DNA of 64,000 nucleotides from Escherichia coli (GTDB lineage: Bacteria; Pseudomonadota; Gammaproteobacteria; Enterobacterales; Enterobacteriaceae), in the NCBI RefSeq assembly GCF_009931435.1, contig NZ_CP043414.1. The stretch is one strand, 5' to 3'. The number at the start of each line of letters is the position of its first letter. Positions within the stretch are counted from its first letter, which is position 1. The translations under genes were made by a program, and so were the position numbers. The notes below the pieces were generated by a model, which saw only the letters and a program-made list of their open reading frames with translations, did not search any database and was not told the origin of the DNA. Shown here piece by piece: positions 12,559-32,222 of this stretch.

Positions 12559-13032
12559 TCAGAAAACATACTTTTTGAATACCAGCATCCATCGCTCGCA
12601 AAGTTCGTGATTTGAAGTGCTTTTATTTTTTAGGGGAACATTAACTTTCCACATGGGATTTTTAATATCATCGGTTAAAATATTGAGGCCAGACCGTTTA
12701 TTCGCTGAAAGTTGTTCTCTCCAGTTAGCAATAGCCGCATTATTCATACCTCGTAATGTTCCATTGCCGTAAAACTTACCACCCTCTGAAAGCGTGTAAT
12801 TTATTTCCCGGATTTCATCAAAAGTATATGTGCTGTCTTTATCTTTATTGAAAATACGGACAGTATGTTTTTGAGTATCAATTACAATACCTGTCTGCTG
12901 GCATTCATAAGAAAGAATGTCGCCGTCCAGAACTTCCGTAAAGCTGTTGTAGTGCTTTTTCTTCTGTATATCTGCTGCGGTCATGATAATGACGAAGAGC
13001 ACCACTAAAAATACGATACCTGTTGCTTCCAC
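12559..13032 (-). CDS. Membrane-anchored hypothetical protein (N-terminal TM helix)
   Basis: GTG start at 13032 preceded by GGAGGAA RBS gives an N-terminus running straight into a hydrophobic helix (IVFLVVLFVIIMTAA); the ORF track's upstream ATG at 13047 lacks an RBS. Confidence 0.5.
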   Translation of the reverse strand: MEATGIVFLVVLFVIIMTAADIQKKKHYNSFTEVLDGDILSYECQQTGIVIDTQKHTVRIFNKDKDSTYTFDEIREINYTLSEGGKFYGNGTLRGMNNAAIANWREQLSANKRSGLNILTDDIKNPMWKVNVPLKNKSTSNHELCERWMLVFKKYVF

Positions 13033-13166
13033 TCTTACTTCCTCCATGTAAATGAGTTAAAGAGACTGAACCCGCTCACAGAGCTTTGCTTCGTTTTATA
13101 CGTGCTACAGCACCAAACTCATGGCGTCGGTCTCGGCGTTGCAAGGCTATCAGAACTTGAAATTAT

Positions 13167-13392
13167 GATCGATATAAAAGATCGATAATTTGTTATTGAT
13201 AGATAATAACGATTGAAAGCGCGATATCGATCGGTGCTTAATTGTTATTATCGATCGAATATCTATTTATGATAGTTGTAAGCTATCGTGCGGTCGTTTT
13301 TGATCGTTTTAAACGATATGACGAGACGCTAAAAGAATTGAATCCTATCAATTGGTTAAGCGGTGGTTTTGCCATGTGATATCAGCCGGATC
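13167..13392. promoter_or_regulatory. Divergent intergenic region with six GATC (Dam) sites and several short palindromes
   Basis: GATC at 13167, 13180, 13229, 13253, 13302 and 13389 within ~225 bp, between divergently oriented envelope-protein genes. Confidence 0.5.
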
Positions 13393-13464
13393 CCGCAACA
13401 ACTCTAGCCCTGACCGGATTAGGTCAAAAATTTAGGCACTTTGATTATCAGGATGGATAAGCAG

Positions 13465-13995
13465 ATGAAGAAGATTTTACTCGTTGCTGGCGCAGCTCTG
13501 GCACTGGCGGGATGTGGTGAGAAAGGTGAGTTTGAGAAAGCGATTAATGCCAAGATTGGGCAAGACAAATACTGCTTCTCGCTGGATAACAATAACACCA
13601 GCTTCCCTATCCGTCTTGCCAAGCCACTACTTGATTCGACTGGCACAGGGACGAATTCAGTGATCCTCGATGGTTTTATTGAGCAGGGCCTGATGGTTTT
13701 TGAGCAGGGTTATGATTCGAATGTATTAGGGATAACAGAGGAAGGCAAAAAAGCCAAAGTCTGGAGCACAACAGACGGTGCCTGTGTTGGTCGTCGTGCT
13801 GTTGACGATATTAAGGAATGGACTGAGCCGGGCAACGGTAATCAGAAAGTCGTTCGCGTGTCTTATACGTGGAAGCTGGTTGACGTTCCGGGCTGGATTG
13901 ACAAAAAAGCGTTCGCCAACGTCAAAGGAATGAATGAACCTGCTGATGGTGCAATAAATCTCGTTAAAACCAGTAATGGCTGGAGAGCTAACTAA
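13465..13995 (+). CDS. Lipoprotein, hypothetical (176 aa)
   Basis: Signal/lipobox MKKILLVAGAALALAGC. Confidence 0.6.
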   Translation: MKKILLVAGAALALAGCGEKGEFEKAINAKIGQDKYCFSLDNNNTSFPIRLAKPLLDSTGTGTNSVILDGFIEQGLMVFEQGYDSNVLGITEEGKKAKVWSTTDGACVGRRAVDDIKEWTEPGNGNQKVVRVSYTWKLVDVPGWIDKKAFANVKGMNEPADGAINLVKTSNGWRAN

Positions 13996-14087
13996 AAGGA
14001 TGCTGGATCGTTAAATGCCCCTGCTACGCTGTGGAAAGTGACAGAAGGGGCATGAATTGTATTTCATTTAATGTAGTGAATGATATT

Positions 14088-14663
14088 TTATTGTATCGAT
14101 TTGTTAGATACTTTCATCAATTTCTCTTGAATTTTTCTTATTCTTTCAAGTTCTTCAACAATGGGATTTTTCTCGCCTTCACTTTGCATGAAAGGGCTTA
14201 AGTCTATATTGTTTTTTTCAACAACTTCTTTATTCATATAACTGTACGTTGCGGTTATTGTAAATTGTTGTGGTAACGGATTTTTCGATTCTCCAAAAAT
14301 AACCCAACCTTGACCAAGGGCGAAGAATAACTCTTGATTGGGCGCTAAGCTATCAATAGTCGATGTAAAAATACTTGTTTCTTTTAGGTTTTTAGTTGGC
14401 TCATCGAACTGATAAAAATCCTTATCTAATTCTAATTTTACATTCAGGGCTGGTGTCTTACCGCTATTATAAATTTTCAGGTATAGGAATTGCGAGTGAG
14501 GTCTTACCATTGGCTGGATTATTATATAAGGACGAGACATTGCCTCGGTTTGCTCATTCATTATCTGAGCTGTTCGTTCGCTTATTCTCGACATCTTGTA
14601 TGTCAAAAATGCATAAATTCCTGTAATGATAACAAGAATTGCTGTAAGTATTTCCATTGTCAT
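14088..14663 (-). CDS. Single-pass membrane protein, hypothetical (191 aa)
   Basis: AGGAG RBS 6 nt upstream of ATG; N-terminal TM helix ILTAILVIITGIYAFLTY. Confidence 0.6.
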   Translation of the reverse strand: MTMEILTAILVIITGIYAFLTYKMSRISERTAQIMNEQTEAMSRPYIIIQPMVRPHSQFLYLKIYNSGKTPALNVKLELDKDFYQFDEPTKNLKETSIFTSTIDSLAPNQELFFALGQGWVIFGESKNPLPQQFTITATYSYMNKEVVEKNNIDLSPFMQSEGEKNPIVEELERIRKIQEKLMKVSNKSIQ

Positions 14664-15282: not shown

Positions 15283-16764
15283 TTAGTGTTTCTTATGGCT
15301 CGGTGGACTCAGTTTTGGCGCGCTTCCTTGCCTCATGTGTTCTGGTGGCATTGAAGGTGTGAGATTTATGCTTCTATTAACTTCCGGCTGTTCCTGATTA
15401 GGACGGCTTGGTAAACGTTTGATTTCATCAGGTGTTAATTTATAGTCACCATTGTTAAATTTGGTACGTTTTTCAAACTCCGAGCGTGGAACATTGACAC
15501 CCAGCACTTCATCATAGACATAGTTCTCTGCGATACGCTTATCATGGTCAGCATCAATGGTATCGGGTTTCCTTCTGGCCCATACAAATCTCTCTTTGAA
15601 GAAGCCCACCACAAGCAGTGTGAAACGCTTAAACAAACCATTTTGTCGTGGCTTAGTCTGTTTCCTACTTCTCATCGGAGCACGGTTTATCGCTCTGGTG
15701 TTTCGAGAAGAAGGGGTTTCCAGTTTAGTGGATGCAGTTGGTTCAGGAACAATCAGAACGGGAGATTTCTTCCCTGAAATACTTACTTTACTGACCTTAT
15801 TAGGATTACGGTATGATTTTGCTGCTGGTCTTCTGCTTGTAGTTGCTGTTGCCACAATCGGCTGTTGTTCTACTGTTACCGGGTCGTCTGGAAGAACAAT
15901 CTCTTCGGGGTCAGGAAGAATTGTTATCTCAAAGCTTCTGACATCAACAACGATCTCCAGTGGTAGCTCACTGAATGTGGTGTAGACCTTCTTGGCCTCT
16001 TCAATTTGATGATCGCGTTGAGCTTGTTCAACAGATCGCTGTTCCTGAGACTCTTTGTCATTCCATTTAGCACGATGAACACGTTGCATTGCCGGGCGGT
16101 TAGTTTCCGTTGCTTTGGCAAGCCAGAACGCTTTTTCTTCAGCGCTGAATGCTTCTTCTGCCTGAGCAAGGGCATCAGCACATTGAGTTCTGAGAGAACG
16201 GTGATCGATACGTTCTTCACTGCCTGCAGTCTCAAGGTAGCTGTTTGACATCGTGGCCCATGACTCACGCCACTGAACAACCATCTTCTTATCATTCCAG
16301 CTTCTGTCTTTTTTACCGAAGCCTTCGGGACCGATAGTTTTCAGGGTTAACATGACGTGAGCATGGGGATTCTTACCATCTAAATCGTGGAATGCGATAT
16401 CAGCAATCATTCCTTTATCAGCAAAGTTCTTCTGGCAGTATTCGGCAACTAATTTTTTCTTGTCATCATTGCTGAGTTCTACGGGAATAGCGACATCAAA
16501 ATAACGGGCTGTTTGACCATTGTTCTGGCGTTCCACTCTTTCAACTTCATTCCAGAGTGCTGACGAGCTTTCAACAATATGAGCAGGTGCGGAAACAGGG
16601 GCTAATATAATATGACCATGAAGATCTGTTCTGTGGCTGAAATCAAATGTCTCGCCAATGCGATCATCTTTAATACGTGTACGGGCATGGTAGGCAGCTT
16701 TCGCAACAGAAGTCATGCCTTCGCTTCGTTTCACAATTTTAAAATCCAGATGAAAAATCGCCAT
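15283..16764 (-). CDS. mobA: MobA/MobL-family (MOBQ) conjugative relaxase
   Basis: N-terminus MAIFHLDFKIVKRS...AKAAYHAR with candidate catalytic Tyr; three-His motif HDLDGKNPHAHVML (H-x-D-x4-N-x-H-x-H). Confidence 0.85.
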   Translation of the reverse strand: MAIFHLDFKIVKRSEGMTSVAKAAYHARTRIKDDRIGETFDFSHRTDLHGHIILAPVSAPAHIVESSSALWNEVERVERQNNGQTARYFDVAIPVELSNDDKKKLVAEYCQKNFADKGMIADIAFHDLDGKNPHAHVMLTLKTIGPEGFGKKDRSWNDKKMVVQWRESWATMSNSYLETAGSEERIDHRSLRTQCADALAQAEEAFSAEEKAFWLAKATETNRPAMQRVHRAKWNDKESQEQRSVEQAQRDHQIEEAKKVYTTFSELPLEIVVDVRSFEITILPDPEEIVLPDDPVTVEQQPIVATATTSRRPAAKSYRNPNKVSKVSISGKKSPVLIVPEPTASTKLETPSSRNTRAINRAPMRSRKQTKPRQNGLFKRFTLLVVGFFKERFVWARRKPDTIDADHDKRIAENYVYDEVLGVNVPRSEFEKRTKFNNGDYKLTPDEIKRLPSRPNQEQPEVNRSINLTPSMPPEHMRQGSAPKLSPPSHKKH

Positions 16765-17409
16765 TAAAAATATAACCTCAAATAAAAGTAATGCTGTTAG
16801 TTTTTCGTAAGAAAAACTTCGGGGTTGACGTTGACCTTGGTTTTACTTTTAGCCTGCGGCAGCAACCGTCGGTAGACCCCACACACTGCGTAGCAGTGTA
16901 TAGGTGGGCATTGTCTTTAAGAAAATAAGCCAATGTAAAATGCCCCTCTTATTAATTAATACGAAATATATGTATGGTTGTAAAATAATACGCCGGAATA
17001 AGCGGCGCAAACTGGATTAAAGGTGTAGGTTTCACGTCCACAGAACAAAAAGAGTAAAGAAAAGGCCCGTAAGGGCAAAAGAAATATTAATTATTCCCGC
17101 CGTAAGGCGGGATAGCTAAATTTGATGGAAAAAAACCAATAAAACAGAGAGTGTTATGTGTTGCACAATTCACAGGTTGAGATTGGAAAATAGAGTTTAA
17201 AATTGACAGGTGAAAATAAAAGCACAAATGCGCAAAAATAAGTAACGCGGAGAGTGCCAGATGTTTTTGGTTAGTGAATACTATCATATGCGTTGCACAT
17301 ATTTATAAAGAAATGTATCAGAATCATTCTCTCTGACAAAACAGACTAAATTTGACGTTATTTATCTTTGTGATAATTAAAATAAGATATAATAATAGAA
17401 GGAGGTAGT
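16765..17409. other. Candidate oriT region between divergent relaxase and mobC-like genes
   Basis: Hairpin acactgc-gta-gcagtgt at 16883-16899; two GTAA(G)-loop hairpins (gccc-gtaa-gggc, cccgcc-gtaa-ggcggg) at 17064-17108; geometry mirrors RSF1010 mobC-oriT-mobA. Confidence 0.4.
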
Positions 17410-17715
17410 ATGGATAATGAAAGTAAAAGACCAAGAACAGAAAAAACATTAAAGCAAAAGGTTGCTTTTGCTCAGCTTGAACTTAATCGTCTTAAGTCTC
17501 TGGAAAAATCAGAGCGAAAGAAAGTTGAAACAAGACTCAAGATTATACTTGGTGCGGAAGTGGCTAAGGCTATGAATTGTAGTGTCGAACAGGTGGATAA
17601 AGAGCTTGTTATGGGGATTTTGCTTTCAGCATCTGACCTGAATGATATTGAAAAAATAACATATATAAAAGCAGGCAGTAAGTTTCTCGCGCAAATGGAG
17701 GGAAGACAAAAATAA
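17410..17715 (+). CDS. MobC-like relaxase accessory protein (putative)
   Basis: 101-aa charged coiled-coil protein transcribed divergently from the relaxase; assignment is by position and size only. Confidence 0.35.
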   Translation: MDNESKRPRTEKTLKQKVAFAQLELNRLKSLEKSERKKVETRLKIILGAEVAKAMNCSVEQVDKELVMGILLSASDLNDIEKITYIKAGSKFLAQMEGRQK

Positions 17716-17976
17716 TAATATTTAAATTTATTTTGATTCAGGTATTGATATCTGATTATTATCTGTTATCTATATAAAAGAACAGAACGCAGGATCATCC
17801 TTTATTAATATTTTTTCCTTTTCAATCATGCGTTCTGTTCGACCAGTAATCTGTTAATTTTTATCTTTATGTAGTGAACGTTATTATTACTTTTTTATCA
17901 GATATGATAAATATCCCATGAGGAAGTAATAATAACAGTAGTAGTGATAACAAATGTTGTTTTTAAATCTCCCGGA

Positions 17977-18002
17977 AGGCAAAGAGAAATCTTTGCCTTT
18001 TT
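17977..18002 (+). terminator. Rho-independent terminator (ggcaaaga-gaaa-tctttgcc + TTTTTT)
   Basis: Perfect 8-bp stem, tetraloop and U-tract, about 110 bp upstream of pilS. Confidence 0.6.
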
Positions 18003-18112
18003 TAATTCATCCGTCTGTCAGATAGAATTAAATATATCTTTCTATTTCTATTGCCAGATATGAGAGAAGCGTTATAACAGGAGTTATCATTAAAACAAAA
18101 AAGGAGATGATA

Positions 18113-18670
18113 ATGGTTTTATTAAATAACAAAAGAAAAGGCAAGAAAGGTTTCTCACTACTCGAGCTATTACTTGTTTTAGGCATCATTGCTGCATTAG
18201 TGGTAGCGGCTTTTATCGTTTATCCCAAGGTTCAGGCTTCACAAAGAGCACAGGCCGAATCCAATAACATTGCCACCATACAGGCAGGTGTTAAAGCGTT
18301 ATACACATCGGCTTCAAGTTTTACTGGCCTGACAAATACTGTGGCTGTTCAGGCAAAAATCTTCCCTGACAATATGTTAAGTGGGTCAGGAACGGCTGCT
18401 AAACCCATCAATGCCTTTAAAGGTAATGTGACGCTGGCTGCTACAGCTACAGGACCATCATCAGCGGCTGGCTCTTCTTTCACTATCACATACGATAATG
18501 TGCCAGCAGCGGAATGTGTGAAGATTGCGACAGCGGCAGCAGGTAATTTCTACATTACCACGGTTGGAACCAAGGTTGTTAAAGCCGCAAGAGGAACACT
18601 TGATGTGGCAGCTACGGCAGCGGCCTGTAATAACGCCACAAGTAATACATTAGTTTTCACGTCTATCTAA
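18113..18670 (+). CDS. pilS: Type IV prepilin, PilS-like major pilin (type IVb, IncI-thin-pilus-like)
   Basis: Long basic leader then G-FSLLELLLVLGIIA (prepilin peptidase motif with Glu+5); AAGGAG RBS 6 nt upstream of ATG 18113. Confidence 0.75.
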   Translation: MVLLNNKRKGKKGFSLLELLLVLGIIAALVVAAFIVYPKVQASQRAQAESNNIATIQAGVKALYTSASSFTGLTNTVAVQAKIFPDNMLSGSGTAAKPINAFKGNVTLAATATGPSSAAGSSFTITYDNVPAAECVKIATAAAGNFYITTVGTKVVKAARGTLDVAATAAACNNATSNTLVFTSI

Positions 18671-18722
18671 TGAAGAGGGCGCAGGCCCTTTTCTTTCTTA
18701 TTGCTAAAACAGGGAGATAATT

Positions 18723-20186
18723 ATGATAAAGAATAAAGGATTTACCTTACTGGAAGTCAGTATTGTGTTAGGCATTGGAACACTTATCGCTTTTATGAAG
18801 TTTCAGGATATGAGAAACAATCAGGAAGCGGTATTGGCTGATAATGTTGGAACACAGATTAAACAGCTTGGCGAAGCTGTTAACCGCTATATCAGTATTC
18901 GCTATGACAAGATTTCCACACTGTCATCATCCAACAATCAAAGTAGCGATCCGGGGCCAAGAACATGTTCGGCTGCTGGTTGTGAAATCACTTACCAGAC
19001 GTTAATTAATGAAGGTCTGTTGCCTGTCGGCTATACAGGAACTAACGCGCAAAAAGCATCTTACAAGATTGTGTTAAAGCGTTCAGGAACAGCGCCTGAT
19101 TACGTTATTAATGGTCTTATAACAACCGCTAGCCCGTGGGAAGAAGGTGGTCGTATTCGTTATGATCTATTAGGTAAAGCGGTTCAGGCGGCAGGTGTTG
19201 ATGGTGGTATGAGCAGAAACACCAAGATAGCTTCCGGCTATGGTGGTCAGTGGAGTGAGAACTCTAATAGCTACAGCAATATCACGGGTGGTGGATTGCT
19301 GGCTTACCGCGTGGGGTATAACTCTTCAATGTATTCTGTTTATCTGCGTCGTGATGGAACGTTGCCAATGACGGGTGATCTGAATCTTGGTGGGAAGAGC
19401 ATCAAAAACATCAAAGATATGACAGCATCAGGGACAACAACAACCGGAGCACTTAAGACAACGGGTAATGCGTCTGTTGCGTCAGATCTGAGTGTGGGTG
19501 GAACCTCGACCCTTAATGGTCCTGTAAATATCAACAACAACCTGAAAGTAAAATTTGATACCTATCTTAATACGCTATCAACAACAGGTCTGGCGAAGTT
19601 TGGTAGCCGTATTGCGACGAACGGACTTAATCCAAACGATCTGCCCGCTGGCTGGGCTGGCGGTGTTCGCACCTATGATTTGTATGCGTCGGGGACTGTT
19701 GGTGTTGGAACCGGTAAAACAGTTAAAGCTTACATGAACAATGCGGGTAATATTTATGCGTCAGGTAATCTTACCGCCGGGACGATAAAATCCAACGGAA
19801 CAATTGAATCAACAGGCAGAATCAAAGCAGGTGAATATCTCCACCTGAATGGTCAGGCAACGTTGAATGCGAAATGTACGCCTAATGGTTTGGTGGGACG
19901 AGACAGTACAGGTCGAGTGTTATCGTGTGTTAACGGTAAATGGCAGACAGCAAGTGGTGATGGCCTGAAAGGTATTTTTATAACGATAACAGATCAAATC
20001 TCTGGTTATAAATGCGTTATACCGAATAGTGATACTGGAACATGTGCCTGTCCGGGATCAACGTATAGTCCTCAGTTTGGTTATATATCTGGAACCCTTA
20101 TTGCAGAATATAATGAGGAGCGTTGTAGTGGTGGTAGGAATACACATTGTTATAGTAATTTCAGAAGGTTATATGCATGTCGGTAA
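18723..20186 (+). CDS. pilV: Type IV prepilin-like minor pilin/adhesin, PilV-like (487 aa)
   Basis: N-terminus MIKNKG-FTLLEVSIVLGIG (prepilin motif) followed by a large G/T/S-rich, Cys-containing domain. Confidence 0.7.
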   Translation: MIKNKGFTLLEVSIVLGIGTLIAFMKFQDMRNNQEAVLADNVGTQIKQLGEAVNRYISIRYDKISTLSSSNNQSSDPGPRTCSAAGCEITYQTLINEGLLPVGYTGTNAQKASYKIVLKRSGTAPDYVINGLITTASPWEEGGRIRYDLLGKAVQAAGVDGGMSRNTKIASGYGGQWSENSNSYSNITGGGLLAYRVGYNSSMYSVYLRRDGTLPMTGDLNLGGKSIKNIKDMTASGTTTTGALKTTGNASVASDLSVGGTSTLNGPVNINNNLKVKFDTYLNTLSTTGLAKFGSRIATNGLNPNDLPAGWAGGVRTYDLYASGTVGVGTGKTVKAYMNNAGNIYASGNLTAGTIKSNGTIESTGRIKAGEYLHLNGQATLNAKCTPNGLVGRDSTGRVLSCVNGKWQTASGDGLKGIFITITDQISGYKCVIPNSDTGTCACPGSTYSPQFGYISGTLIAEYNEERCSGGRNTHCYSNFRRLYACR

Positions 20187-20221
20187 TCTCGCTATGGATG
20201 ATTTCATAAATTACAGGTAAG

Positions 20222-20239
20222 AAGGGCCGATAGGCCCTT
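20222..20239. terminator. Hairpin between convergent pilV and Lamassu-like operon (aagggcc-gata-ggccctt)
   Basis: Perfect inverted repeat in the 60-bp convergent gap. Confidence 0.45.
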
Positions 20240-20246
20240 TCAGCTA

Positions 20247-21998
20247 TTATGAGGTTTGTAATAAAGAGAAGGCGTCATCCAATAGAATTTTCTCGCTATT
20301 GTTTATCTCTTTATTTAATAGAAATGATCTCACTGATTTTGCATTACCGATACAAATTTGTTTCGCTTTTCCTGCGAAATATTTCTTATTTATTTCATTG
20401 ATATCAAAAAGTGGATTGTCATTAATTTCGTTTTTTTTATATTCTGCTACGGTAAATAGCATTTGCTCATTATTACCAGATTCATTTCCTAAGAACTTAA
20501 AAATAAGATCTCTATTTCCAATATCTATATCTTCTTTGAATATAGCATCTAACAAAAATGGAAATTTATGGATTGTTTTTCTTTTATTGATTAATTTAAT
20601 AAAGGAAAAATGATAAGCCATGATTATTTTATGTAATTCAACCCCTTGGAAGGGGAAGGATGTAATGGAATAAAGATTTTGATACCTTGGATTATTAGGT
20701 ATTATTATCTTCAAAGCTTTTGCTTTTTCGCTGAAAATAGTTAAAAATTCCTTGTCAATGTTGTTTCGGAGAGAGTTAATTTGTGAATCTGTGAGTAGGT
20801 TGTCAATTTGGGTGTTAAGGTTTGATATTTTTTCGACATAATTAGCTTCTTTAATTTTAATATCATTTAAAATGGTGATATTTGCACGGTGATTAACCCA
20901 ATGGTCAAAGTCAATATTTTCGATTCTCGATTCTTTTAACACCTCATACTCAAGCTTTATTTTTTCACTATCGTGTTTGATCTTTCTTTCAACAGAATTT
21001 AATGATGACGAAACATTTTTAATTTCTTCAGTTATACGTTCTTTTTCTCGTAACGCATCGTTAATATCTTGAGTATAGATATATAATTGTCTAAGATCGC
21101 CGGGTAGCGTTTGTTCGCATACAGGACATGTGTCAACGCTGGGTTTTTGAAGTTTTAAATTTCGAATAGTTTGTAAAAGTACTTTTTGACGCCCACGTAA
21201 CATACTGAGTTTATTGCATAGTTTTTCATAATTAGCTTCTTCCGTAATCAGATTTTCTGCTAATATGTTGTATTTTTTTAAGTAATCAATTGCTTCCCCT
21301 TTGAATCGAGACTCTAATATCTCAGAGATTTTAAGAGAGCTATCTTTTGTTTTGTATTGAATTAATTGCTCTCTTTCATATTCAATTTGTTGTTTTTCTT
21401 TTTGCAACATATATTTTTGCAATCTGTCCGTACGATCTTTTATGCCTGCGTAGTAATCAAGGTAGTCATATTTGAAGTCTTTATAAAATCTATAATCACC
21501 TATTGATTCTCTTAGATAAACCCAACCAACAGATTGAGATATATAGAATGGCAAGAATGCAGCTTCTATCGGTGCATCAGTAAACTTAGTTTGGTTCTGT
21601 AATGTTAGATTAAAGTCAAATAAGTGGTTAAATAATTTTTTGTATCTTGCATATTCATATGAGTTATTTCCATTAATGCCATCAAACCGTAGGGGGACTC
21701 TATCATCAATGCGAACGACGAGAGTATCATCAAATCGAACAAATACAACCGTATGAGATGATTTTACTTTTATTATTTCACACTCAAGACGAAAGAGTAC
21801 TCTTTCTGTAAGAATGTCGTGCAAATTTTCTTTGGAATCATTAACACCCATTGTGTACAAAATTGATTGCATTAATGTACTTTTCCCTGATGTGTTCCTC
21901 CCGTGAATAATATTGACTGAGTCACCAAAATCAGTGCAAAAAAAACCTTTATTATTCATAGAGTATGCTAAAATGCTTTTCAGAATTAATTTAGACAT
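20247..21998 (-). CDS. SMC/Rad50-like ABC ATPase with coiled coil and CxxC hook (Lamassu LmuB-like)
   Basis: Walker A GRNTSGKST near N-terminus; long heptad-rich middle; CPVCEQ in mid-protein; start ATG 21998 with GAGGAA RBS overlaps upstream stop (ATGTCTAA). Confidence 0.65.
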   Translation of the reverse strand: MSKLILKSILAYSMNNKGFFCTDFGDSVNIIHGRNTSGKSTLMQSILYTMGVNDSKENLHDILTERVLFRLECEIIKVKSSHTVVFVRFDDTLVVRIDDRVPLRFDGINGNNSYEYARYKKLFNHLFDFNLTLQNQTKFTDAPIEAAFLPFYISQSVGWVYLRESIGDYRFYKDFKYDYLDYYAGIKDRTDRLQKYMLQKEKQQIEYEREQLIQYKTKDSSLKISEILESRFKGEAIDYLKKYNILAENLITEEANYEKLCNKLSMLRGRQKVLLQTIRNLKLQKPSVDTCPVCEQTLPGDLRQLYIYTQDINDALREKERITEEIKNVSSSLNSVERKIKHDSEKIKLEYEVLKESRIENIDFDHWVNHRANITILNDIKIKEANYVEKISNLNTQIDNLLTDSQINSLRNNIDKEFLTIFSEKAKALKIIIPNNPRYQNLYSITSFPFQGVELHKIIMAYHFSFIKLINKRKTIHKFPFLLDAIFKEDIDIGNRDLIFKFLGNESGNNEQMLFTVAEYKKNEINDNPLFDINEINKKYFAGKAKQICIGNAKSVRSFLLNKEINNSEKILLDDAFSLLQTS

Positions 21999-23079
21999 AC
22001 ATTCCTCTTGTCTCAACATATGCAGCTATTATCGCAAATGCAATCATGTGTTTTTCTAACCTTGAATTATATGTGTTAATATAAGTTTGATATAATTCAG
22101 TAATACAATCTGCTTCATCTGTATGTTTATAATCTATTTGTGTGTTTTCTGATACAAATTTATAAATCTTTTTGTATTCTACTTGTTGAAAATCTTTAAA
22201 AAAATCGAAACAGTTATCTAATAATTCTTGCGCTCTTCTTTTTATAGGGAGCTTAATTGATAATCCTTTCGCCAATTTATCTGCATGAGAACGCCAAAAG
22301 TTGAAAGCTTTTTTACTTTCTTGGAACATACTGAATGTTGCATCAATTTTTTGTTTGGTCAAACGCTTTGACCTATCTGTAAGTAAAGCATATCCAGCAT
22401 TATTATATGTTAACTCAACATCTTGCAATAAAGCCATTAGAGTTGTTATTACAGCGTCATGATCACTAACCTTACAACCTAGAACCTCAGTAGATAAACC
22501 TGTTAGCGTTCTTCTCCACCCTTTATAAGTTTGAGGAAGGTCAATGAAACTAAATTTTACATTAGAGAGTTGCTTAAAATCTGCAATTTCTCCATCTATT
22601 AGTTTTGATTGAATGTTTTCTTTGATTTCATCATGTAGATCAGAATAATTTTTAGAGATGTTTGTTACTTGTATTTTTTCTACTTTGCATTTTTTACCTT
22701 TTTCTTTCTTACCCTGAAGTATAATATTTCGATTTGTCAAGAAAGATAGAGTGTGTTTGTAATCATCAGATTTGGGGTGTTTATCGTTGATAAGTTCATT
22801 TCCAACAAGCGATATTTTTCCGATGATCTCACAAAATTTTTGATCCGTTTTCCAGTCATCTCTTGATTTTTTAGCTTGATAAGTATCAATGCGACTAATG
22901 TCACCATTTTCATCAACAAAGGCAAAAAGAAAATCTTCATGGTGTTCAACACATATAAAATAATCTAGCAATGGAGAGTTTAGTTTTTCGTAATCATCAA
23001 AAAGAAGGTATACAACACAACAACGTTGGAATGTATATCCTGAGCCTCCCTCAACTCCTGAGTTGACGCTTTCTGACAT
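21991..23079 (-). CDS. Mrr-like PD-(D/E)xK nuclease-domain protein (Lamassu LmuA-like effector, putative)
   Basis: N-terminal GYTFQ ... VEHHEDFLFAFVDENGD ... IDTYQAKK fits the Mrr-type G-x-x-FE / D / (Q/E)-x-K pattern; translationally coupled to the downstream ATPase. Confidence 0.5.
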   Translation of the reverse strand: MSESVNSGVEGGSGYTFQRCCVVYLLFDDYEKLNSPLLDYFICVEHHEDFLFAFVDENGDISRIDTYQAKKSRDDWKTDQKFCEIIGKISLVGNELINDKHPKSDDYKHTLSFLTNRNIILQGKKEKGKKCKVEKIQVTNISKNYSDLHDEIKENIQSKLIDGEIADFKQLSNVKFSFIDLPQTYKGWRRTLTGLSTEVLGCKVSDHDAVITTLMALLQDVELTYNNAGYALLTDRSKRLTKQKIDATFSMFQESKKAFNFWRSHADKLAKGLSIKLPIKRRAQELLDNCFDFFKDFQQVEYKKIYKFVSENTQIDYKHTDEADCITELYQTYINTYNSRLEKHMIAFAIIAAYVETRGMYV

Positions 23080-23348
23080 TTTTTGTTGCCCCTGTTAATC
23101 AAATCATAGCGTAAATCTATTAATACATATTTAACATTGGCTTTATGTATGAAATACGCATTCTCCTTAGCTAAAGGATATTATAAAGTGGACTAAAAAT
23201 CATCTAACACCTTGCAAAATGTGAAGTTTTTCTTCATGTAAAACTCATAAATAACGTTACTATTCTGTTAGTAACGAAATAATCGGGAAACTTGCTATTT
23301 ACGGTTTACAGGAATCTTAATCAAAGTTGTGTAAAAGTTTAATCTTAC

Positions 23349-23606
23349 TTATTGAGCAAATTCAAACTGCCTGACCATCCCATCCCGGTTAGCATCAAGA
23401 AAATCTGCCCACCACTGTAGCATTAACCTTCGCTGCTCAAGATGCTTGGCCTTATGGGTATAGGCAGCACGAACACTGTTGCTTTCCTTGTGGATCATCT
23501 GGAGTTCCACCGCATCTTCAGACCATAGCCCTGATTTAATCAGAGCACTACATGCCAGTGTGCGGAAACCATGACCAGAGATGTCCTGTGTGGTGTCATA
23601 GCCCAT
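23349..23606 (-). pseudogene. C-terminal remnant of a second P4-type tyrosine integrase
   Basis: 85-aa ORF aligns with the last ~80 residues of the adjacent intact integrase (…RxxYxHK…LxxRRxMLQWW…) but is divergent from it and lacks everything upstream. Confidence 0.6.
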
Positions 23607-23624: not shown

Positions 23625-24854
23625 TCAAGCAGCCATAGCCCTATACTTTTGCGCCTTAACGTAATCTCCCCACCATTGCATAAGCACTTCTCGCTCCCCT
23701 AAATATTCAGCTCGATTGTAGGCTGCTATGATTTCAGTGCTTTTGGTATGGGCCAATGCTGCTTCAAGAACTTCTGTTCTGAATTTGCCACTCTCTTCGG
23801 CGGCTGTTCTGGCAATAGAACGCATACCATGAGCTACCAGTTCACCACCCAACCCCATACGAATCAATGCGGCGTTGGCTGTCTGCTCATGCATGTGGGC
23901 CAATGGTGTTTTTATGCTGGGAAATACCCATTCACGATGACCGCTGATAGGCTGCATGTTTTCCAGAATGCGAAGTGCCTCTTTGCTTAATGGCACTTTA
24001 TGAGGCCGTTTCATCTTCATAAACTCTGGTGGGATGTTCCAGATTTTATTCTCTGTATCGATGTCAGCCCAACGAGCACGAACAGCCTCACCGGGGCGAA
24101 CCCATGTCAGCAGTTGCCATTCAATCAGCATACGGGTTTCCAGACGGATGGATGCGTTTGCCAGTGCAATCATAAACCGGGGGATTTCGCTTGGTGGTAA
24201 TGCTGGCATATTTTGTTTTTTGGGCTTACTGAAACGTTGACCAAGGTTGTCGGCTGGGTTGAACTCAATGAGTTCTTCTGTGGCAGCATAGCGAAAAATT
24301 TCATTCAGGCGGGAAATGATGCGACGTAGAGTTTCAAGCACACCCCGTTGTTCAATTGGGTCGAGATGCTGCTTGAGCATTTTGGGGCGGATCTCTTTGA
24401 TAGGGACATCACCCAGAGTGGGAAAGATGTTCCGTTCAAGGCTACGCCAGATGTCTTCTGCATGATCTTGGGATATACCGGAAGTCTTAATCTTTTCATC
24501 CAACCACTTTCTTGCAACAGCCTGTAGCGTGTTTTCAGTCGCATCTTTTAGTGCATTGGCTTTTTCGTTGTTATGGACTTGAGGATCGATACCGTTGGCA
24601 AGTAGGGAGAGATACTCATCCCGCAAAGTTCGTGCCTTAGCCAAGGTAAGGTGAGGGTAGGTTCCAAGACTCATTTTTGTGCGTTTTTTGGTCACTGGCA
24701 CTGAATACCTGAAATACCAGTTTTTCTTCCCTCCTTTTGTGTCTGGCGCTATGCGTAGCAGTAATCCATCTCCATCAAAGAGGTTGATTTCCTTATCGCC
24801 GGGTTTGGTATTTTTGATTTCAGTATCAGTAAGTTTTTTTGCGAGCTTTGCCAT
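23625..24854 (-). CDS. intA: P4-type tyrosine integrase (IntA-like) adjacent to ssrA
   Basis: 409 aa; C-terminal catalytic region ...VAHGMRSIARTA...ALAHT...AAYNRAEY; sits directly downstream of the tmRNA 3' end as in CP4-57. Confidence 0.9.
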   Translation of the reverse strand: MAKLAKKLTDTEIKNTKPGDKEINLFDGDGLLLRIAPDTKGGKKNWYFRYSVPVTKKRTKMSLGTYPHLTLAKARTLRDEYLSLLANGIDPQVHNNEKANALKDATENTLQAVARKWLDEKIKTSGISQDHAEDIWRSLERNIFPTLGDVPIKEIRPKMLKQHLDPIEQRGVLETLRRIISRLNEIFRYAATEELIEFNPADNLGQRFSKPKKQNMPALPPSEIPRFMIALANASIRLETRMLIEWQLLTWVRPGEAVRARWADIDTENKIWNIPPEFMKMKRPHKVPLSKEALRILENMQPISGHREWVFPSIKTPLAHMHEQTANAALIRMGLGGELVAHGMRSIARTAAEESGKFRTEVLEAALAHTKSTEIIAAYNRAEYLGEREVLMQWWGDYVKAQKYRAMAA

Positions 24855-25018
24855 TTGGGACCCTCAAGTTTTGGACCCTTTCCGTTGGGTCCCAAAAAGG
24901 GTGCCATAAGTTGTGGTTCTCAGCAATTCTCCCTGAACTATAGTGAACGTAAAAAAGCCCGCAGAGCTTGTGCTGTGCGGGCTTAGTGAACTTCACTGAA
25001 CGTTAGTGTATCAATATT

Positions 25019-25381
25019 TGGTGGAGCTGGCGGGAGTTGAACCCGCGTCCGAAATTCCTACATCCTCGGTACTACATGCTTAGTCAGTCTTTACATTCGC
25101 TTGCCAGCTGCGGACGGACACGCCACTAACAAACTAGCCTGATTAAGTTTTAACGCTTCAACCCCAGGCAGGGCTTCCACGCGATCTCTTTTGGGTTTGA
25201 CCTCTCTTGATCCCCGTCCTAAGAGCGGAGGCTAGGGAGAGAGGGCTCTAAGCAGGTTATTAAGCTGCTAAAGCGTAGTTTTCGTCGTTTGCGACTATTT
25301 TTTGCGGCTTTTTACGAGGCCAACCGCCCCTCGGCATGCACCTTGGGTTTCGCAAATCCCGTCGAATCCAGAATCAGCCCC
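25019..25381 (-). ncRNA. ssrA: tmRNA (SsrA), 363 nt
   Basis: Reverse complement reads GGGGCUGAUUCUGGAUUCGACGGG ... GCAAACGACGAAAACUACGCUUUAGCAGCUUAA (tag reading frame) ... GGUUCAACUCCCGCCAGCUCCACCA. Confidence 0.97.
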
Positions 25382-25595
25382 AATGTGTAACGGTAAGTAT
25401 ACCAGATTCATGAGTGCCATGACCAGCCTCAATGGCGTTATCGTTAAAGATTTAGCACCCGTGTAGCCTGATTTTTATTCGATTAAGCAATGGGATGGCA
25501 ACATTTGGGTCGGATGTGATAGCCAATAAGATGTTCATTCGCGCCGCCGGAGAGGGTGGCGCGGTGAGGAACCGGTCAATAATTGGAGTGCAGAT

Positions 25596-26078
25596 TTAAC
25601 GGTGGGCGTTTTTCATGATACGCGCTTTATCCACCTGCCATTCGCGTTCTTTGATGTCTGAACGTTTATCGTGCTGTTTCTTACCTTTAGCGACGCCGAT
25701 TTTCACTTTGCACCAGGCATTTTTCCAGTACAGGGAGAGCGCCACTACGGTATAGCCTTCTCGATTGACGCGACCGTACAATGAGTCCAGTTCGCGCTGG
25801 TTGAGAAGTAACTTGCGGGTACGGGTAGGATCGCACACCACATGCGTGGATGCCACAGCCATTGGCGTGATGTTAGCGCCAAACAGAAATGCTTCTCCAT
25901 CACGTAGAAGGACGTAGCTGTCGCTGATATTGGCTTTTCCTGCGCGCAGGGATTTAACCTCCCAGCCTTGCAGGGCAAGTCCCGCTTCGAACTCTTCTTC
26001 GATAAAGTATTCGTGACGGGCGCGCTTGTTAAGCGCGATGGTCGCTGAACCAGGTTTATGTGCTTTTTTCTTCGTCAT
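25596..26078 (-). CDS. smpB: SsrA-binding protein SmpB
   Basis: 160-aa product [43 protein letters not shown]... Confidence 0.97.
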
Positions 26079-26209
26079 AAGCGTTGTGAATCATCGGTAA
26101 TCTGAAATCGAAAACACCCCATATCAATCCTGCGGGGGACAAGGCTCTATCTTAGCATGAACCCGATGTTACCCAGCGCCGGGATAGCGTTTTTTTTACA
26201 GCAGGATAA

Positions 26210-26686
26210 ATGATATTATTTGTTGGATTTTTGTTGATGGAAATTGTTATGCCTCAGATTAGCCGGACCGCACTGGTACCCTACAGCGCGGAGCAAATGT
26301 ATCAGTTAGTGAATGACGTTCAGTCTTATCCTCAGTTTTTGCCGGGTTGTACCGGAAGTCGGATTCTGGAGTCCACTCCTGGGCAGATGACCGCGGCGGT
26401 AGATGTCTCTAAGGCTGGGATCAGCAAAACGTTTACTACCCGCAACCAGTTGACCAGTAACCAAAGTATTCTTATGAATCTGGTGGATGGGCCGTTCAAG
26501 AAATTGATCGGTGGATGGAAGTTTACGCCGCTGAGCCAGGAGGCGTGTCGTATCGAGTTTCATCTCGACTTTGAGTTTACCAATAAGTTGATTGAACTCG
26601 CCTTTGGCCGCGTGTTTAAAGAGCTGGCGGCTAATATGGTCCAGGCTTTTACGGTTCGTGCGAAAGAGGTTTACAGTGCCAGGTAA
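26210..26686 (+). CDS. ratA: Ribosome association toxin RatA (YfjG)
   Basis: Product matches the K-12 RatA N-terminus and length (158 aa). Confidence 0.9.
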
Positions 26687-26966
26687 AATTGCCGTTGAGG
26701 TGGCTTATGCTCTACCTGAGAAGCAGTACCTGCAGCGCGTGACGCTGCAGGAGGGCGCGACGGTTGAAGAAGCTATTCGCACCAGTGGCTTGCTGGAATT
26801 GCGTACCGATATCGATTTAACTAAAAACAAAGTCGGCATTTACAGCCGTCCGGCAAAACTGAGCGATACCGTGCATGATGGCGATCGGGTGGAGATTTAT
26901 CGTCCTCTCATTGCCGATCCGAAAGAGCTTCGCAGGCAACGAGCAGAAAAATCAGCGAATAAATAA
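26676..26966 (+). CDS. ratB: RatB (YfjF), GTG start overlapping ratA 3' end
   Basis: Product (M)[31 protein letters not shown]... 96 aa. Confidence 0.85.
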
Positions 26967-27028
26967 CAGACGTTAAAAAAGGTGCTCATTGAGCACCTTT
27001 TTTAACGTCTTTGAGAGCAACTTTATTA

Positions 27029-27370
27029 TTAGTTACCACTCAGCGCAGGTTTGTTATCAATGTTGGTCAACACCCCGCTACTGTTAAAGGTCAGCGTCAG
27101 CGTTTGCTGCGTTACACCTTCATGACCTGGTTGCTGGCGGAAGACATAGAACCAGGTATTCGTACCAAATGGATCGGACATCAGCGGTGTACCCAATGCG
27201 TACGCAACTTGTTGTTGCGTCATGCCAACACGTATTTTGGATACGTCGTTAGCGGTCAGATAGTTCCCCTGGTTGATGTCAGGACGGTAAACCACTCGCT
27301 CCAGAGTGGAACAGCCTGCGGTCAACATCAATAGTACTGCTGCTGCAGCAGTCAGCGTTTTACAGCGCAT
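27029..27370 (-). CDS. bamE: Outer membrane protein assembly factor BamE (SmpA)
   Basis: 113-aa lipoprotein [38 protein letters not shown]... Confidence 0.95.
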
Positions 27371-27518
27371 AGTGATTTGATTCCTTTTCGGGCCCGAGCA
27401 GTACGTGGCTCATCTGTAATATGCCGATGATAATAGACCTTTCATCACTTTAAAACCTTTTGCTTTCCGGTCTTACGGCGTTTTGCTGTTTACTCTGACC
27501 GTGAAGCAGGAAAAAAGT

Positions 27519-29180
27519 TTACGCCGCAAGCAGTTCTTTCGCATTCGCCAGTGTGTTACGTGTGACTTCACTGCCACCAAGCAGGCGCGCCAGCTCTTGT
27601 AACCGCGCTTTTTTGTCCAGCGACTCCATATGCGTTTCTGTCATCGCACCATCGGTTTCTTTGCTGACAAAATAGTGTTGATGACCACATCCCGCGACTT
27701 GTGGCAGGTGGGTAACACACATCACCTGAGTTGATTCGCCGAGTTGACGCAGCAGTTTGCCGACAACTGCCGCTGTTGGACCGCTAATCCCTACATCCAC
27801 TTCATCAAAAATCAGTGCCGGGGTTTCCATTTTACGCGCTGTGATGACCTGAATTGCCAATGCGATGCGGGACAATTCACCACCAGATGCGACTTTGGCA
27901 ATAGGCTGCATTGGCTGACCTGGGTTGGTGGTTACCCGAAACTCAATACGATCAGCGCCGTCAGCGCCCAAGTGATGCTCGTCAAATTTAACATCAATCG
28001 TAAACTGCCCATGCGGCATAGAGAGTGCATGCATACTATCGGTGATCAGCTGTGCCAACTCATTTGCATAATGCTGGCGTTGCTGGTGTAACGCGCGTGC
28101 CGTTTCCAGTGCTTGCTGATGATGTTTCGTTACCGCCAGCGCGAGCGTTTCTTGTGAGTCGGCCTGATCGTCCAGTTGCTGCTGTTCTTCCAGTAGCGAC
28201 TGGTAATACTGTGGCAATACCTCAGGGCTGACGTGATGTTTACGTGCCAGCGAAATCTGTTTTGAGATGCGCTGTTCAAGTTCAAACAGTCGGTTGGGAT
28301 CGAGATCCAGACGATCGCAGTAGTGGCGTAGTTCGTCGCTGGCTTCAACAATCTGGATGGTAGCTTCTTCCAGCATATCAAGTACGCCGGACAGTTTGCT
28401 ATCCATGCCAATCAATTCGCTCACCAGTTGTTTAGCCGTGTAAAGCTGGCTTTGCAGGTTTGCGTCTTCGCCGTCGGCCATTAATGCCAATGCATTCTGG
28501 CTGGTGGTCAGTAATTGACCGCTGTTCGCCAGACGTTTGTACTCTTCGTCGATTTGCTCAAACTCTCCGGGCTGCGGATTAAATTCGTTAAGTTCTTTTA
28601 ATTGGTATTGCAGCAGTTCCGCACGAGCGGCGCGTTCCTGACTTAACTGTTGATGATGCGCGAGGTCACGGCAGCTCTGATGCCACAACTGATAACGTGC
28701 GGTCATTTCCTGGAGCAGAGAGGTTTCATTGGCATAGCCATCAAGCAGGAATTTTTGGTGCTCGGGTTTGGTGAGTAATTGATGGGCGTGCTGACCATGG
28801 ATCTGAATGAGCAACTGGCCCAGTTCGCGCAGTTGTGACAGTGGAACAGCTGTACCGTTGATAAAACCACGAGAGCGACCATCGCTACTGATTACGCGAC
28901 GAAGCAGGCATTCACGGCCATCTTCCAGTTGGTTTTCTTCCAGCCAGCGCAGTGCTGCGGGTGTATCTTTCAGAGAAAAACGGGCGCACAGATCTGCGCG
29001 AGCAGCTCCGGTACGCACCATGTCGGCTTCAGCGCGACCGCCGAGACAAAGGCCCAGGGCATCTATTGCAATAGATTTACCCGCGCCAGTCTCGCCGGTG
29101 ATTACGGTCATGCCGCTGTGAAAATCAATCTCAAGCTCACGAACGATAGCAAAGTTGCTGATGGTCAGTTGTGCCAACAT
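27519..29180 (-). CDS. recN: DNA repair protein RecN
   Basis: 553 aa; Walker [12 protein letters not shown]-like coiled coil. Confidence 0.97.
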
Positions 29181-29209
29181 AGTTGTTTTCCTGTATGAAA
29201 AACCATTAC

Positions 29210-29247
29210 TGATATTGTGTACAGTATAAACTGGTTTTATATACAGT
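29210..29247. promoter_or_regulatory. Two LexA (SOS) boxes in the recN promoter
   Basis: CTGATATTGTGTACAG (29210-29225) and CTGGTTTTATATACAG (29232-29247) fit CTG-N10-CAG. Confidence 0.8.
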
Positions 29248-29265
29248 AAAGAGGCTGGCGTAAAA

Positions 29266-30861
<1,596 letters not shown>

Positions 30862-30915
30862 TTTCTGCTTTCGTAATAAATCACGGCCCAGCATGCGAAT
30901 GCCGGGCCGTTTTCG

Positions 30916-32178
30916 TTACTCCGCCACACTCTCACGCAGCGGTTTTACAGGAAAAACTTTTACCTGTTTAATCATATTGTCCTGTACGTCGAGAATATCG
31001 ATATCGTACTCGCCAATACGCACGCGAGTTCCTGCGACAGGAATCTCTTCCAGTGCCTCAAGAATGACGCCATTAACCGTTCGTGCATCATCTTCCGGTA
31101 GATGCCAGTTAAAGGCTTTGTTGATTTCCCGCACGTTGGCAGTGCCATCGATAATCACCGAACCGTCGTTTTGCGGCGTGACCTCTTCGGCGAGCGTTGG
31201 CGACATCGACGTGGTGAAATCACCAACAATCTCTTCGAGAATATCTTCGACCGTCACCAGCCCCTGAATATCTCCATACTCGTTGACGACCAGGCCGACT
31301 TTCTTTTTGTTGCGCTGAAACTTCACCAGCTGCGTGCTGAGCGGCGTACCTTCCGGGACAAAATAGATTTCGTCCGCGGCGCGTAGCATGGTTTCTTTGG
31401 TGAACTCTTTTTTCTCCGACATCAACCGCCAGGCTTCACGCACACGCAGCATACTGATGGCATCGTCCAGCGAGTCACGGTAGAGCACGATGCGTCCGTG
31501 AGGTGAGTGGGAGAGTTGGCGGAGAATCGATTTCCAGTCATCGTTGATATCAATACCGATAATTTCACTGCGCGGCACCATGATGTCATCGACAGTCATT
31601 TTTTCCAGATCGAGTACCGACAACAGCATATCCTGATTGCGACGGGAAATTTGTGACCGCGATTCGTGCACAATGGTGCGTAATTCTTCTTTGCTTAAAG
31701 AGCCACTAACCACGATATCGGTTTTGATGCCCATCATGCGCATTAACATGCGGGTAATAGCGTTTAGCAACCAGACCAGCGGCATCATCAAAATTTGCAG
31801 CGGTGCCAGCAGAAAACTACTTGGATAGGCGACTTTTTCCGGGTACAGCGCGGCAATGGTTTTCGGCAATACTTCAGCAAAAACCAGTACGACAAAAGTA
31901 AGCACACCAGTCGCAATTGCCACGCCCGCATCCCCGTACAAACGCATCCCCACAATAGTGCCGAGCGCGGAGGCAAGAATATTGACCAGGTTATTGCCGA
32001 TTAACACCAGGCTTATCAGGCGGTCTGGCTTACGCAGCAATTTTTCGACACGTTTGGCCGAGCGATTACCCTGTTTCGCCATATGCCGCAGACGATAGCG
32101 GTTGAGGGTCATCATTCCGGTTTCGGACCCGGAAAAATAGGCTGAAATGACCACCATGATGATCAGAATAATGATCAA
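30916..32178 (-). CDS. yfjD: Inner membrane protein YfjD (DUF21-CBS-CorC/HlyC family)
   Basis: 420-aa multi-TM N-terminus plus CBS pair plus CorC C-terminus. Confidence 0.9.
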   Translation of the reverse strand: MIIILIIMVVISAYFSGSETGMMTLNRYRLRHMAKQGNRSAKRVEKLLRKPDRLISLVLIGNNLVNILASALGTIVGMRLYGDAGVAIATGVLTFVVLVFAEVLPKTIAALYPEKVAYPSSFLLAPLQILMMPLVWLLNAITRMLMRMMGIKTDIVVSGSLSKEELRTIVHESRSQISRRNQDMLLSVLDLEKMTVDDIMVPRSEIIGIDINDDWKSILRQLSHSPHGRIVLYRDSLDDAISMLRVREAWRLMSEKKEFTKETMLRAADEIYFVPEGTPLSTQLVKFQRNKKKVGLVVNEYGDIQGLVTVEDILEEIVGDFTTSMSPTLAEEVTPQNDGSVIIDGTANVREINKAFNWHLPEDDARTVNGVILEALEEIPVAGTRVRIGEYDIDILDVQDNMIKQVKVFPVKPLRESVAE

Positions 32179-32222
32179 CGTGGTAGTAGATATGTGTTCC
32201 AGGGGAAACTCCTTTTCTGGGG

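Follow-up and report, generated by a model that had tools for sequence, protein, structure and literature searches.

We analysed a 64,000-nucleotide stretch of the Escherichia coli chromosome (NZ_CP043414.1; hereafter the window) that carries, at positions 18113–20186, a pair of genes encoding a PilS-like major type IVb prepilin and a large PilV-like minor pilin. The two genes are intact and under purifying selection, they are linked to DNA-transfer genes, they lack pilus assembly machinery both here and at related loci across enterobacterial genera, and the C-terminal tip of PilV is exchanged between relatives as a module. The pair lies on an integrated island of the ROD21-like EARL family, for which a pilin pair together with a MobQ relaxase and TraD has already been published as core, and it is not a new kind of system; what is added here is the population-level architecture of the PilV tip cassette and the finding that machinery is consistently missing across genera. 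Tentatively, and with what we judge to be slightly less than an even chance, we propose that the type IVb pilus machine of a conjugative helper is furnished in trans with a tip adhesin, and often also a major pilin, encoded by the island, which would in this way choose recipients.

The gene for the major pilin (pilS, 18113..18670, + strand) encodes 185 amino acids with matches to PF08805 (1.8e-28), Bundlin (1.8e-8) and N_methyl. An alternative in-frame ATG at 18107 would extend the protein to 187 amino acids; we favour the start at 18113 because a Shine-Dalgarno sequence, AAGGAG, occupies 18101–18106 and orthologues are annotated at 185 amino acids in RefSeq. The second gene (pilV, 18723..20186, + strand) encodes a 487-amino-acid minor pilin and putative tip adhesin. 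Both open reading frames (ORFs) bear the prepilin signatures that the original prediction had read from them, KKG/FSLLE in PilS and NKG/FTLLE in PilV, and both match TIGR02532/N_methyl, with canonical G/F..E N-termini (Phe+1, Glu+5) and a leader of six residues in PilV. PilS combines a class III signal peptide (G-1 and E+5) with a PilS-type globular domain, as in type IVb pilins of the PilS/bundlin group, and in the PDB it weakly matches BfpA, TcpA and the PilS of Salmonella Typhi. Between the two genes, a consensus scan found a hairpin followed by a T-run (18672..18703, + strand), a terminator- or attenuator-like element that would be expected to yield an excess of major over minor pilin.

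PilV consists of a pilin domain (approximately residues 1–235), a repeat-rich stalk, a conserved junction that runs to W407 and a Cys-rich variable tip (residues 408–487), with a Pfam Shufflon_N match confined to residues 346–405 (6.8e-12). The protein has no sequence relatives in the PDB. Its AlphaFold2 model has a mean pLDDT (predicted local distance difference test) of 69, falling below 50 in the tip, and a Foldseek search of the PDB with this model returned no match at E ≤ 0.001, the best being the T4 gp34 fibre at E 0.03, a weak hint only.

Alignments with 24 and with 115 PilV relatives revealed that the protein is conserved through the pilin domain and the junction (GEYL.LNGQA..C.PNGL.GR..G..LSC.NG.W407), and that the sequences are unrelated beyond it. 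At least 16 unrelated families can be distinguished among the tails. In 519 pairs of PilV proteins the N-terminal domains are at least 90% identical and the tips nevertheless unrelated, and 187 pairs with less than 65% identity in the N-terminal domain carry tips of the same family. W407 is the counterpart of the CQSGxW motif encoded by the IncI sfx site, and the breakpoint falls exactly at the first IncI sfx position. As judged from these alignments, the PilV C-terminus after W407 is a swappable cassette. Some relatives' tips contain the phage Tail Collar domain PF07484, and the tip piece of ROD21, SEN1977, resembles T4 gp37 (PMC10655114), both of which point to bacterial surface structures as receptors. 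The tip encoded here gave nothing significant against the IncI shufflon segments that we examined; the motif with which it opens, C..PN..TG.C.CP, is found again in PilV from a complete type IVb operon borne by an integrative conjugative element (ICE). This operon came to light in a comparison of the tip with phages, which produced two matches only. The one examined (L050; MT835540.1, labelled 'UNVERIFIED: Bacteriophage sp.') was rejected as a phage, being a mislabelled piece of a SPI-7-type ICE that encodes PilP, two pilus ATPases, a GspF-like platform protein, pilins, PilV and an ICE replication protein of the STY4534 family.

Homologues of a secretin, ATPase, platform protein, prepilin peptidase or Rci shufflon recombinase are found nowhere in the window, as determined by tblastn of its entire length with IncI1 and IncI2 PilL, PilN, PilO, PilP, PilQ, PilR, PilT, PilU and Rci, which matched nothing except pilS itself and an Xer-like recombinase beside pheA. 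The latter (43434–44456, − strand), a 340-amino-acid Xer/integron-like enzyme encoded in a slightly lower-GC stretch of the core chromosome, was considered as an Rci and rejected as a generic Xer-like tyrosine recombinase. The sfx consensus GTGCCAATCCGGTNNNTGG, which we derived from two real shufflons (IncI1 and IncI2) and which encodes C-Q-S-G-x-W, has no match in the window at up to three mismatches, and the homologous pilV codons (TGT GTT AAC GGT AAA TGG) depart from sfx at 6 of the 16 positions that it specifies. Mating-pore genes are also absent from the window. The original prediction of an orphan pilin pair without sfx-like repeats, on an island with a relaxase and no mating pore, was borne out; its alternative, simple decay of a larger pil operon, was contradicted, as set out below, and it had overlooked the identity of the module with that of EARL islands (PMC6035254), the location at ssrA and the swapped integrase.

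In comparisons with the tRNA-Asn islands of E. coli, the ratio of non-synonymous to synonymous substitution rates (dN/dS) is 0.074–0.085 for pilS, 0.033–0.123 for pilV and 0.06–0.20 for the tip alone, at dS values of 0.13–0.39. We then have the wider record from a scan of a genome collection for PilV relatives, taking one genome per species, which yielded 39 loci, 38 of them enterobacterial. PilN, PilQ, PilR and PilU occur at none of the 38 enterobacterial loci, and related islands with a full pil operon, which the original prediction had suggested looking for, were not found among them. Their sole match at the level of Rci is weak (27–28% identity) and lies at a locus, L025, that is itself devoid of assembly genes; a true pil operon is present at just one surveyed locus, in Trinickia, with 25% identity. 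About half of the loci have both pilS and pilV and about half have pilV alone, as in the ssrA islands of Yersinia. Intact pilin ORFs are kept across many genera, with short or apparently truncated PilV ORFs at a few loci (L009, L028 and L040). P4-type integrases lie downstream at many of the 39 loci, and 26 loci have MobQ, TraD or both within 10 kb.

Here, as in the E. coli strains KFu019 and E2348/69, pilS and pilV lie directly downstream of traD, the candidate origin of transfer (oriT) and mobQ, and the same linkage is seen in Yersinia. The traD gene (17410..17715, + strand) encodes a TraD-like small relaxosome accessory protein of 101 amino acids, 93–95% identical to RefSeq entries named 'conjugal transfer protein TraD', including the island TraD of other E. 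coli. Divergent from it, mobQ (15283..16764, − strand) encodes a 493-amino-acid MobQ-family relaxase (NCBIfam NF041496, 2e-74, 249.7 bits against a cutoff of 200). A very strongly conserved non-coding block upstream of mobQ spans 16791–16918 and is a candidate for oriT together with a mobQ control region. Within it, a plausible oriT at 16846..16918 (− strand) was recognised by conserved 14-mers and consists of the inverted repeat CCCACCTATACACTGC/GCAGTGTGTGGGG followed by TCTACCGACGGTTGCTGCCGCAGGCTAAAAG; the 14-mers are kept, with up to two mismatches, in 20–26 of 26 related loci, and the candidate oriT block is retained in all 26, four of which have a MobQ that is just 33% identical. With an integrase, a relaxase and a putative oriT, and without genes for mating-pair formation, the gene content of the island would fit an integrative mobilisable element.

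This arrangement is that of the EARL islands. Of 56 such islands, 52 have in common genes for a type IV pilin and a pilus-related protein, for TraD and a MobA/MobL relaxase, and for a P4-like integrase with a recombination directionality factor (Pina-Iturbe et al. 2018, PMC6035254); they have no type IV secretion system (T4SS) and are therefore mobilisable (PMC6035254). ICEKp258.2 of Klebsiella pneumoniae ST258 is a member (PMC10763509), and ROD21 of Salmonella Enteritidis, ICEKp258.2 and the tRNA-Asn island of E2348/69 share with the present island a backbone of MobQ, TraD, major pilin, PilV-like protein, AlpA-type factor and P4-type integrase, with no T4SS. The pilin pair itself is 96–98% identical in amino acid sequence to that of the tRNA-Asn islands of E. 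coli. Among 5426 complete E. coli genomes, 565 carry a segment comprising traD, pilS and pilV, with 90–95% nucleotide identity and in every case in the chromosome; they include E2348/69, Nissle 1917 and ATCC 25922. In KFu019 and E2348/69 the segment resides in tRNA-Asn islands together with MobQ and an integrase. In E2348/69, mobQ (12995–14464 of the locus examined) has an internal stop and traD, pilS and pilV are intact.

This copy is an EARL member with a new attachment site, ssrA, and integration into tRNA-Asn by the family's own integrase is not what we found. The tmRNA gene ssrA, the integration target, lies at 25019..25381 (− strand; ARAGORN; Rfam RF00023, 295.8 bits), and next to it is an intact P4-type integrase of the ssrA-specific kind (23625..24854, − strand), which has 91% amino acid identity to integrases of ssrA islands in Yersinia and Prodigiosinella and only 33% to the Asn-type integrase of EARL islands. 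A 3' remnant of an EARL tRNA-Asn-type integrase (23349..23606, − strand) has been left beside it, 95% identical over 84 amino acids to the Asn-site integrase of KFu019. Since the body of the island (17409–23533, integrase stub included) is 96.9% identical to the tRNA-Asn island of KFu019, whereas the working integrase and ssrA match ssrA-borne relatives in Yersinia (81.5% nucleotide and 91% amino acid identity), the island is an EARL body whose integrase and attachment site have been changed. KFu019 also has integrase stubs beside its intact integrase. A further difference from the EARL tRNA-Asn islands is the Lamassu defence cargo described below.

Orphan pilins also occur on other mobile elements, and PilV matches were found in 144 records of non-conjugative plasmids. 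A 5.8-kb Mob plasmid of Klebsiella aerogenes (NZ_CP103670.1), with MobC and a putative relaxase, has a lone PilV-like gene at 1013–2185 whose product is 37% identical to the island PilV. A group of 30–45-kb plasmids from Klebsiella, Enterobacter, Citrobacter and E. coli, typed as 'non-mobilizable' and comprising NZ_CP026209.1 (42.7 kb) and some 70 records like it, has three orphan genes for type IV major pilins, with 48% identity to the island PilS, and an orphan DotA/TraY gene, along with an LPD7 protein, H-NS, a type III restriction-modification system and many methylases; no pilus machinery is annotated on them. One 502-kb 'plasmid' record from Yersinia pseudotuberculosis (pYPSE1-1, NZ_AP028969.1) looks like chromosomal sequence rather than a plasmid, containing fur, fldA, smpB, recN, grpE, sdhCDAB and sucA.

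In the mechanism that we propose, the pair would serve as the pilin module of a ROD21-like integrative mobilisable element, and the helper would be a conjugative element that builds a type IVb mating pilus, either a plasmid of the IncI complex or an ICE of the SPI-7/PAPI-1 type. The helper's prepilin peptidase and assembly machine would process and polymerise the island PilS and put the island PilV at the pilus tip; islands with PilV alone would rely on the major pilin that the helper encodes. Recipient cells would be recognised by the variable C-terminal tip of PilV, which would bind a structure on their surface, and the choice of cells drawn into mating pairs would rest with the island instead of the helper, with a consequent effect on transfer. 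Since about half of the islands encode PilV without PilS, the filament would in those cases have to be supplied from elsewhere. The fixed position of the pair beside oriT and the transfer genes, the bacterial-surface type of the tips, the hairpin between pilS and pilV, which fits the ratio of major to minor pilin, and the orphan pilins on other hitchhiking elements likewise support assembly by a helper. The purifying selection on both genes, the modular exchange of tips and the tip-start motif shared with the ICE-borne PilV also count in its favour. In type IVb systems, large minor pilins such as TcpB and CofB are located at the pilus tip and prime assembly, and a foreign minor pilin would therefore be an effective means of taking over a pilus. 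A search of the literature did not find a helper-pilus role proposed for EARL islands.

The identity of the pair to known complete systems was assessed with IncI-gamma/K1 and IncI2 plasmids as IncI references, in place of R64 (AP005147). PilS is 27–28% identical to the PilS of IncI1 and IncI2. PilV aligns over its full length with IncI2 PilV (26% identity, E 8e-23) and with IncI1 PilV through the junction block alone; the ICE-borne PilV of L050 aligns over its full length at 24% identity, as distant as IncI. The comparison with IncI1 and SPI-7 pil loci that the original prediction had called for ends at 26–28% identity for IncI1/IncI2 and 24% for the ICE. Like IncI1 (R64) and IncI2 (R721/TP114-type) plasmids, the island has a PilS-family pilin and a large PilV with a partial Shufflon_N match at the junction and a variable segment after C..G.W; unlike the IncI thin pilus systems, it has no pilI–pilU, sfx sites, alternative segments or Rci, and its tip is unrelated to the segments examined. 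Tip variation is arranged differently, between islands in the EARL kind and within one element in an IncI shufflon. The ICE system resembles the island in its full-length PilV alignment and in the motif at the start of the Cys-rich tip, but has its own PilP, ATPases and platform protein.

A separate island, SGI1, remodels the mating apparatus of IncC plasmids with its own TraN, TraG and TraH. The parallel with the role proposed here is that a mobilisable island encodes replacement parts for a helper's apparatus and biases transfer to itself; it is an analogy only, and the parts are those of a T4SS in SGI1, whereas they would be those of a type IV pilus in the present island. Somewhat further from the data, and in our view possible though on balance doubtful, is a 'distributed shufflon', in which ROD21-like islands and some small Mob plasmids would keep the PilV scaffold and exchange the recipient-binding tip between elements at the IncI junction, retargeting the type IVb mating pilus of a helper to recipients that the hitchhiking element itself selects. 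If true, remodelling of the mating apparatus in the manner of SGI1 would reach beyond T4SSs to type IV pili.

Several observations weigh against assembly of the pair by a helper's mating pilus. The N-termini are generic, with Phe+1, Glu+5 and the six-residue PilV leader, and could be processed by chromosomal peptidases of the GspO/PppA type. Identity to all complete systems examined is low (24–28%), and in E2348/69 pilS and pilV have stayed intact despite the internal stop in mobQ. IncI1/IncI2 pilQ is present in 76 of the 565 island carriers (13.5%), compared with 17.8% of non-carriers (odds ratio 0.72, p 0.01, from a crude 2×2 table in which phylogroup is uncontrolled); these figures were obtained by inclusion–exclusion among the 5426 complete genomes, from 565 with the island, 941 with IncI1/IncI2 pilQ and 1430 in the union. 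Because of the 26–28% identity and the lack of enrichment of carriers for IncI pil operons, an IncI helper specifically is not indicated by these comparisons. The nearest plasmid relatives of MobQ, 3.5–4.2-kb MOBQ plasmids with 46–54% identity, are uninformative on the helper, and a search for the nearest complete pil operon through PilS relatives (2812 clusters) led, in the contexts examined, to another orphan pilin on an unknown element or to contigs too short to judge. Transfer of ROD21 itself is rare (about 1e-8), required pSLT, an IncF-like plasmid without a type IV pilus, and was unchanged when the island relaxase was deleted (PMC3976249), and the authors of the EARL work favour a benefit to the host (PMC10763509).

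Several of these points would also fit assembly of the pilins by host machinery, either the Hof/Ppd type IVa system or the type II secretion pseudopilus with GspO/PppA peptidases, giving a helper-independent adhesin for colonisation of surfaces or hosts, or a generic mating aid acting with any helper T4SS. We consider this a serious rival, although we think it unlikely. The canonical N-termini, the short PilV leader, the intact E2348/69 pilins beside a mobQ pseudogene and the host benefit favoured by the EARL authors are all in its favour, as is the proportion of island-bearing E. coli genomes (86.5%) without an IncI-type pil operon. On the other side, PilS belongs to the type IVb PilS/bundlin fold family, and we know of no precedent for the assembly of a type IVb PilS by Hof; the pair is linked to traD, oriT and mobQ rather than placed in cargo positions, and tips of the tail-fibre type suggest bacterial, not animal, receptors. 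SEN1976, as far as the citing article relates it, was among the ROD21 genes needed for mouse colonisation in a transposon screen (Silva 2012, as cited in PMC6968874), which would speak for a role in the host, but it is annotated as a pseudogene in S. Enteritidis.

The pilins could also interfere with other elements, poisoning or capping the type IV pilus of an incoming plasmid or altering the cell surface, and so exclude IncI-like plasmids or pilus-specific phages. The slight depletion of IncI pilQ in island carriers (odds ratio 0.72), the Lamassu defence system adjoining the pair and the inhibition of helpers by other mobilisable islands (SGI1) are consistent with this. However, phylogroup confounds the depletion, which is weak; the pair sits in the transfer module, whereas defence cargo varies between islands; and it is difficult to see why a poison subunit should have an adhesin tip that diversifies in the manner of a cassette. 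We regard interference as improbable. Finally, that the pair is a non-functional leftover of a complete pil operon, as the missing machinery in the window and the few disrupted relatives (the three loci with short PilV ORFs and the SEN1976 pseudogene) might suggest, is a reading that we reject as highly improbable, because dN/dS is 0.03–0.12 at dS 0.13–0.39, because intact ORFs are kept across many genera, and because the same machinery-free arrangement recurs in 565 E. coli genomes and at 38 enterobacterial loci, with no related enterobacterial island among those surveyed having a full operon.

The island that carries the pair is a low-GC segment of approximately 5.4–25.0 kb that abuts ssrA, followed by smpB at 25596–26078; the core part of the window at 25000–33000 has 95–99% identity to its counterpart in essentially every one of the 5426 complete E. 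coli genomes. From ssrA, the order is integrase, integrase stub, LmuA/LmuB, pilV/pilS, traD, mobQ, several unknown genes and an AlpA-like gene, and an Rfam scan of the island found nothing beyond the tmRNA. The Lamassu cargo (20247..23079, − strand) is a two-gene anti-phage system adjoining pilV, with LmuB at 20247–22019 (590 amino acids; PADLOC 1.8e-224) and LmuA at 21991–23079 (362 amino acids; 2.1e-137). The pair pilS/pilV is convergent with it, and a GC-rich, terminator-like hairpin read from the sequence lies between pilV and lmuB (20216..20240, strand unassigned). In a Yersinia ssrA island, a Lamassu pair with 73–84% amino acid identity also adjoins the integrase.

Near the far end of the island is a gene for an AlpA-like putative recombination directionality factor (6148..6345, + strand), read from the sequence, with 54% amino acid identity to the AlpA of a Yersinia island; the region is 89.6% identical in nucleotide sequence to the part of the E2348/69 island that holds a helix-turn-helix regulator. 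A flanking direct repeat that could mark the distal attachment site, attR, was sought among repeats in the sequence, by pattern matching with the 3' end of ssrA and by local alignment, and was not found; these gave only a 10-bp match, GGGAGTTGAA, at 5732–5741 and a degenerate match at 63–89. Two 39-nucleotide direct repeats (8722–8760 and 8861–8899), 85% identical, 139 bp apart and each with an internal palindrome, lie just upstream of an ORF (7754–8311, − strand) whose product shares 33% identity with a protein of a Yersinia island that is annotated as RepL; the repeat region is 91% identical to E2348/69, and the repeats may be iterons or a replication origin of the excised island. Beyond the AlpA end of the mobilisable element, 735–5396 (+ strand) encodes a 1553-amino-acid AIDA/YpjA-like autotransporter with a PNPKPDPKPDP linker; its GC content is higher than that of the mobilisable element, and it probably belongs to an older layer of ssrA island.

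ROD21-like islands are common: approximately 10% of the complete E. coli genomes have one, and they are also found in K. pneumoniae ST258 and S. Enteritidis. If their pilins are assembled by host machinery, these islands would encode an overlooked adhesin of major pathogens. If instead, as we propose, they supply their own adhesin to the mating pilus of a helper, this would explain how the islands spread and which recipients they reach, and would represent a new means by which hitchhiking elements manipulate conjugation, with the swappable PilV tips forming a natural library of recipient-targeting modules.

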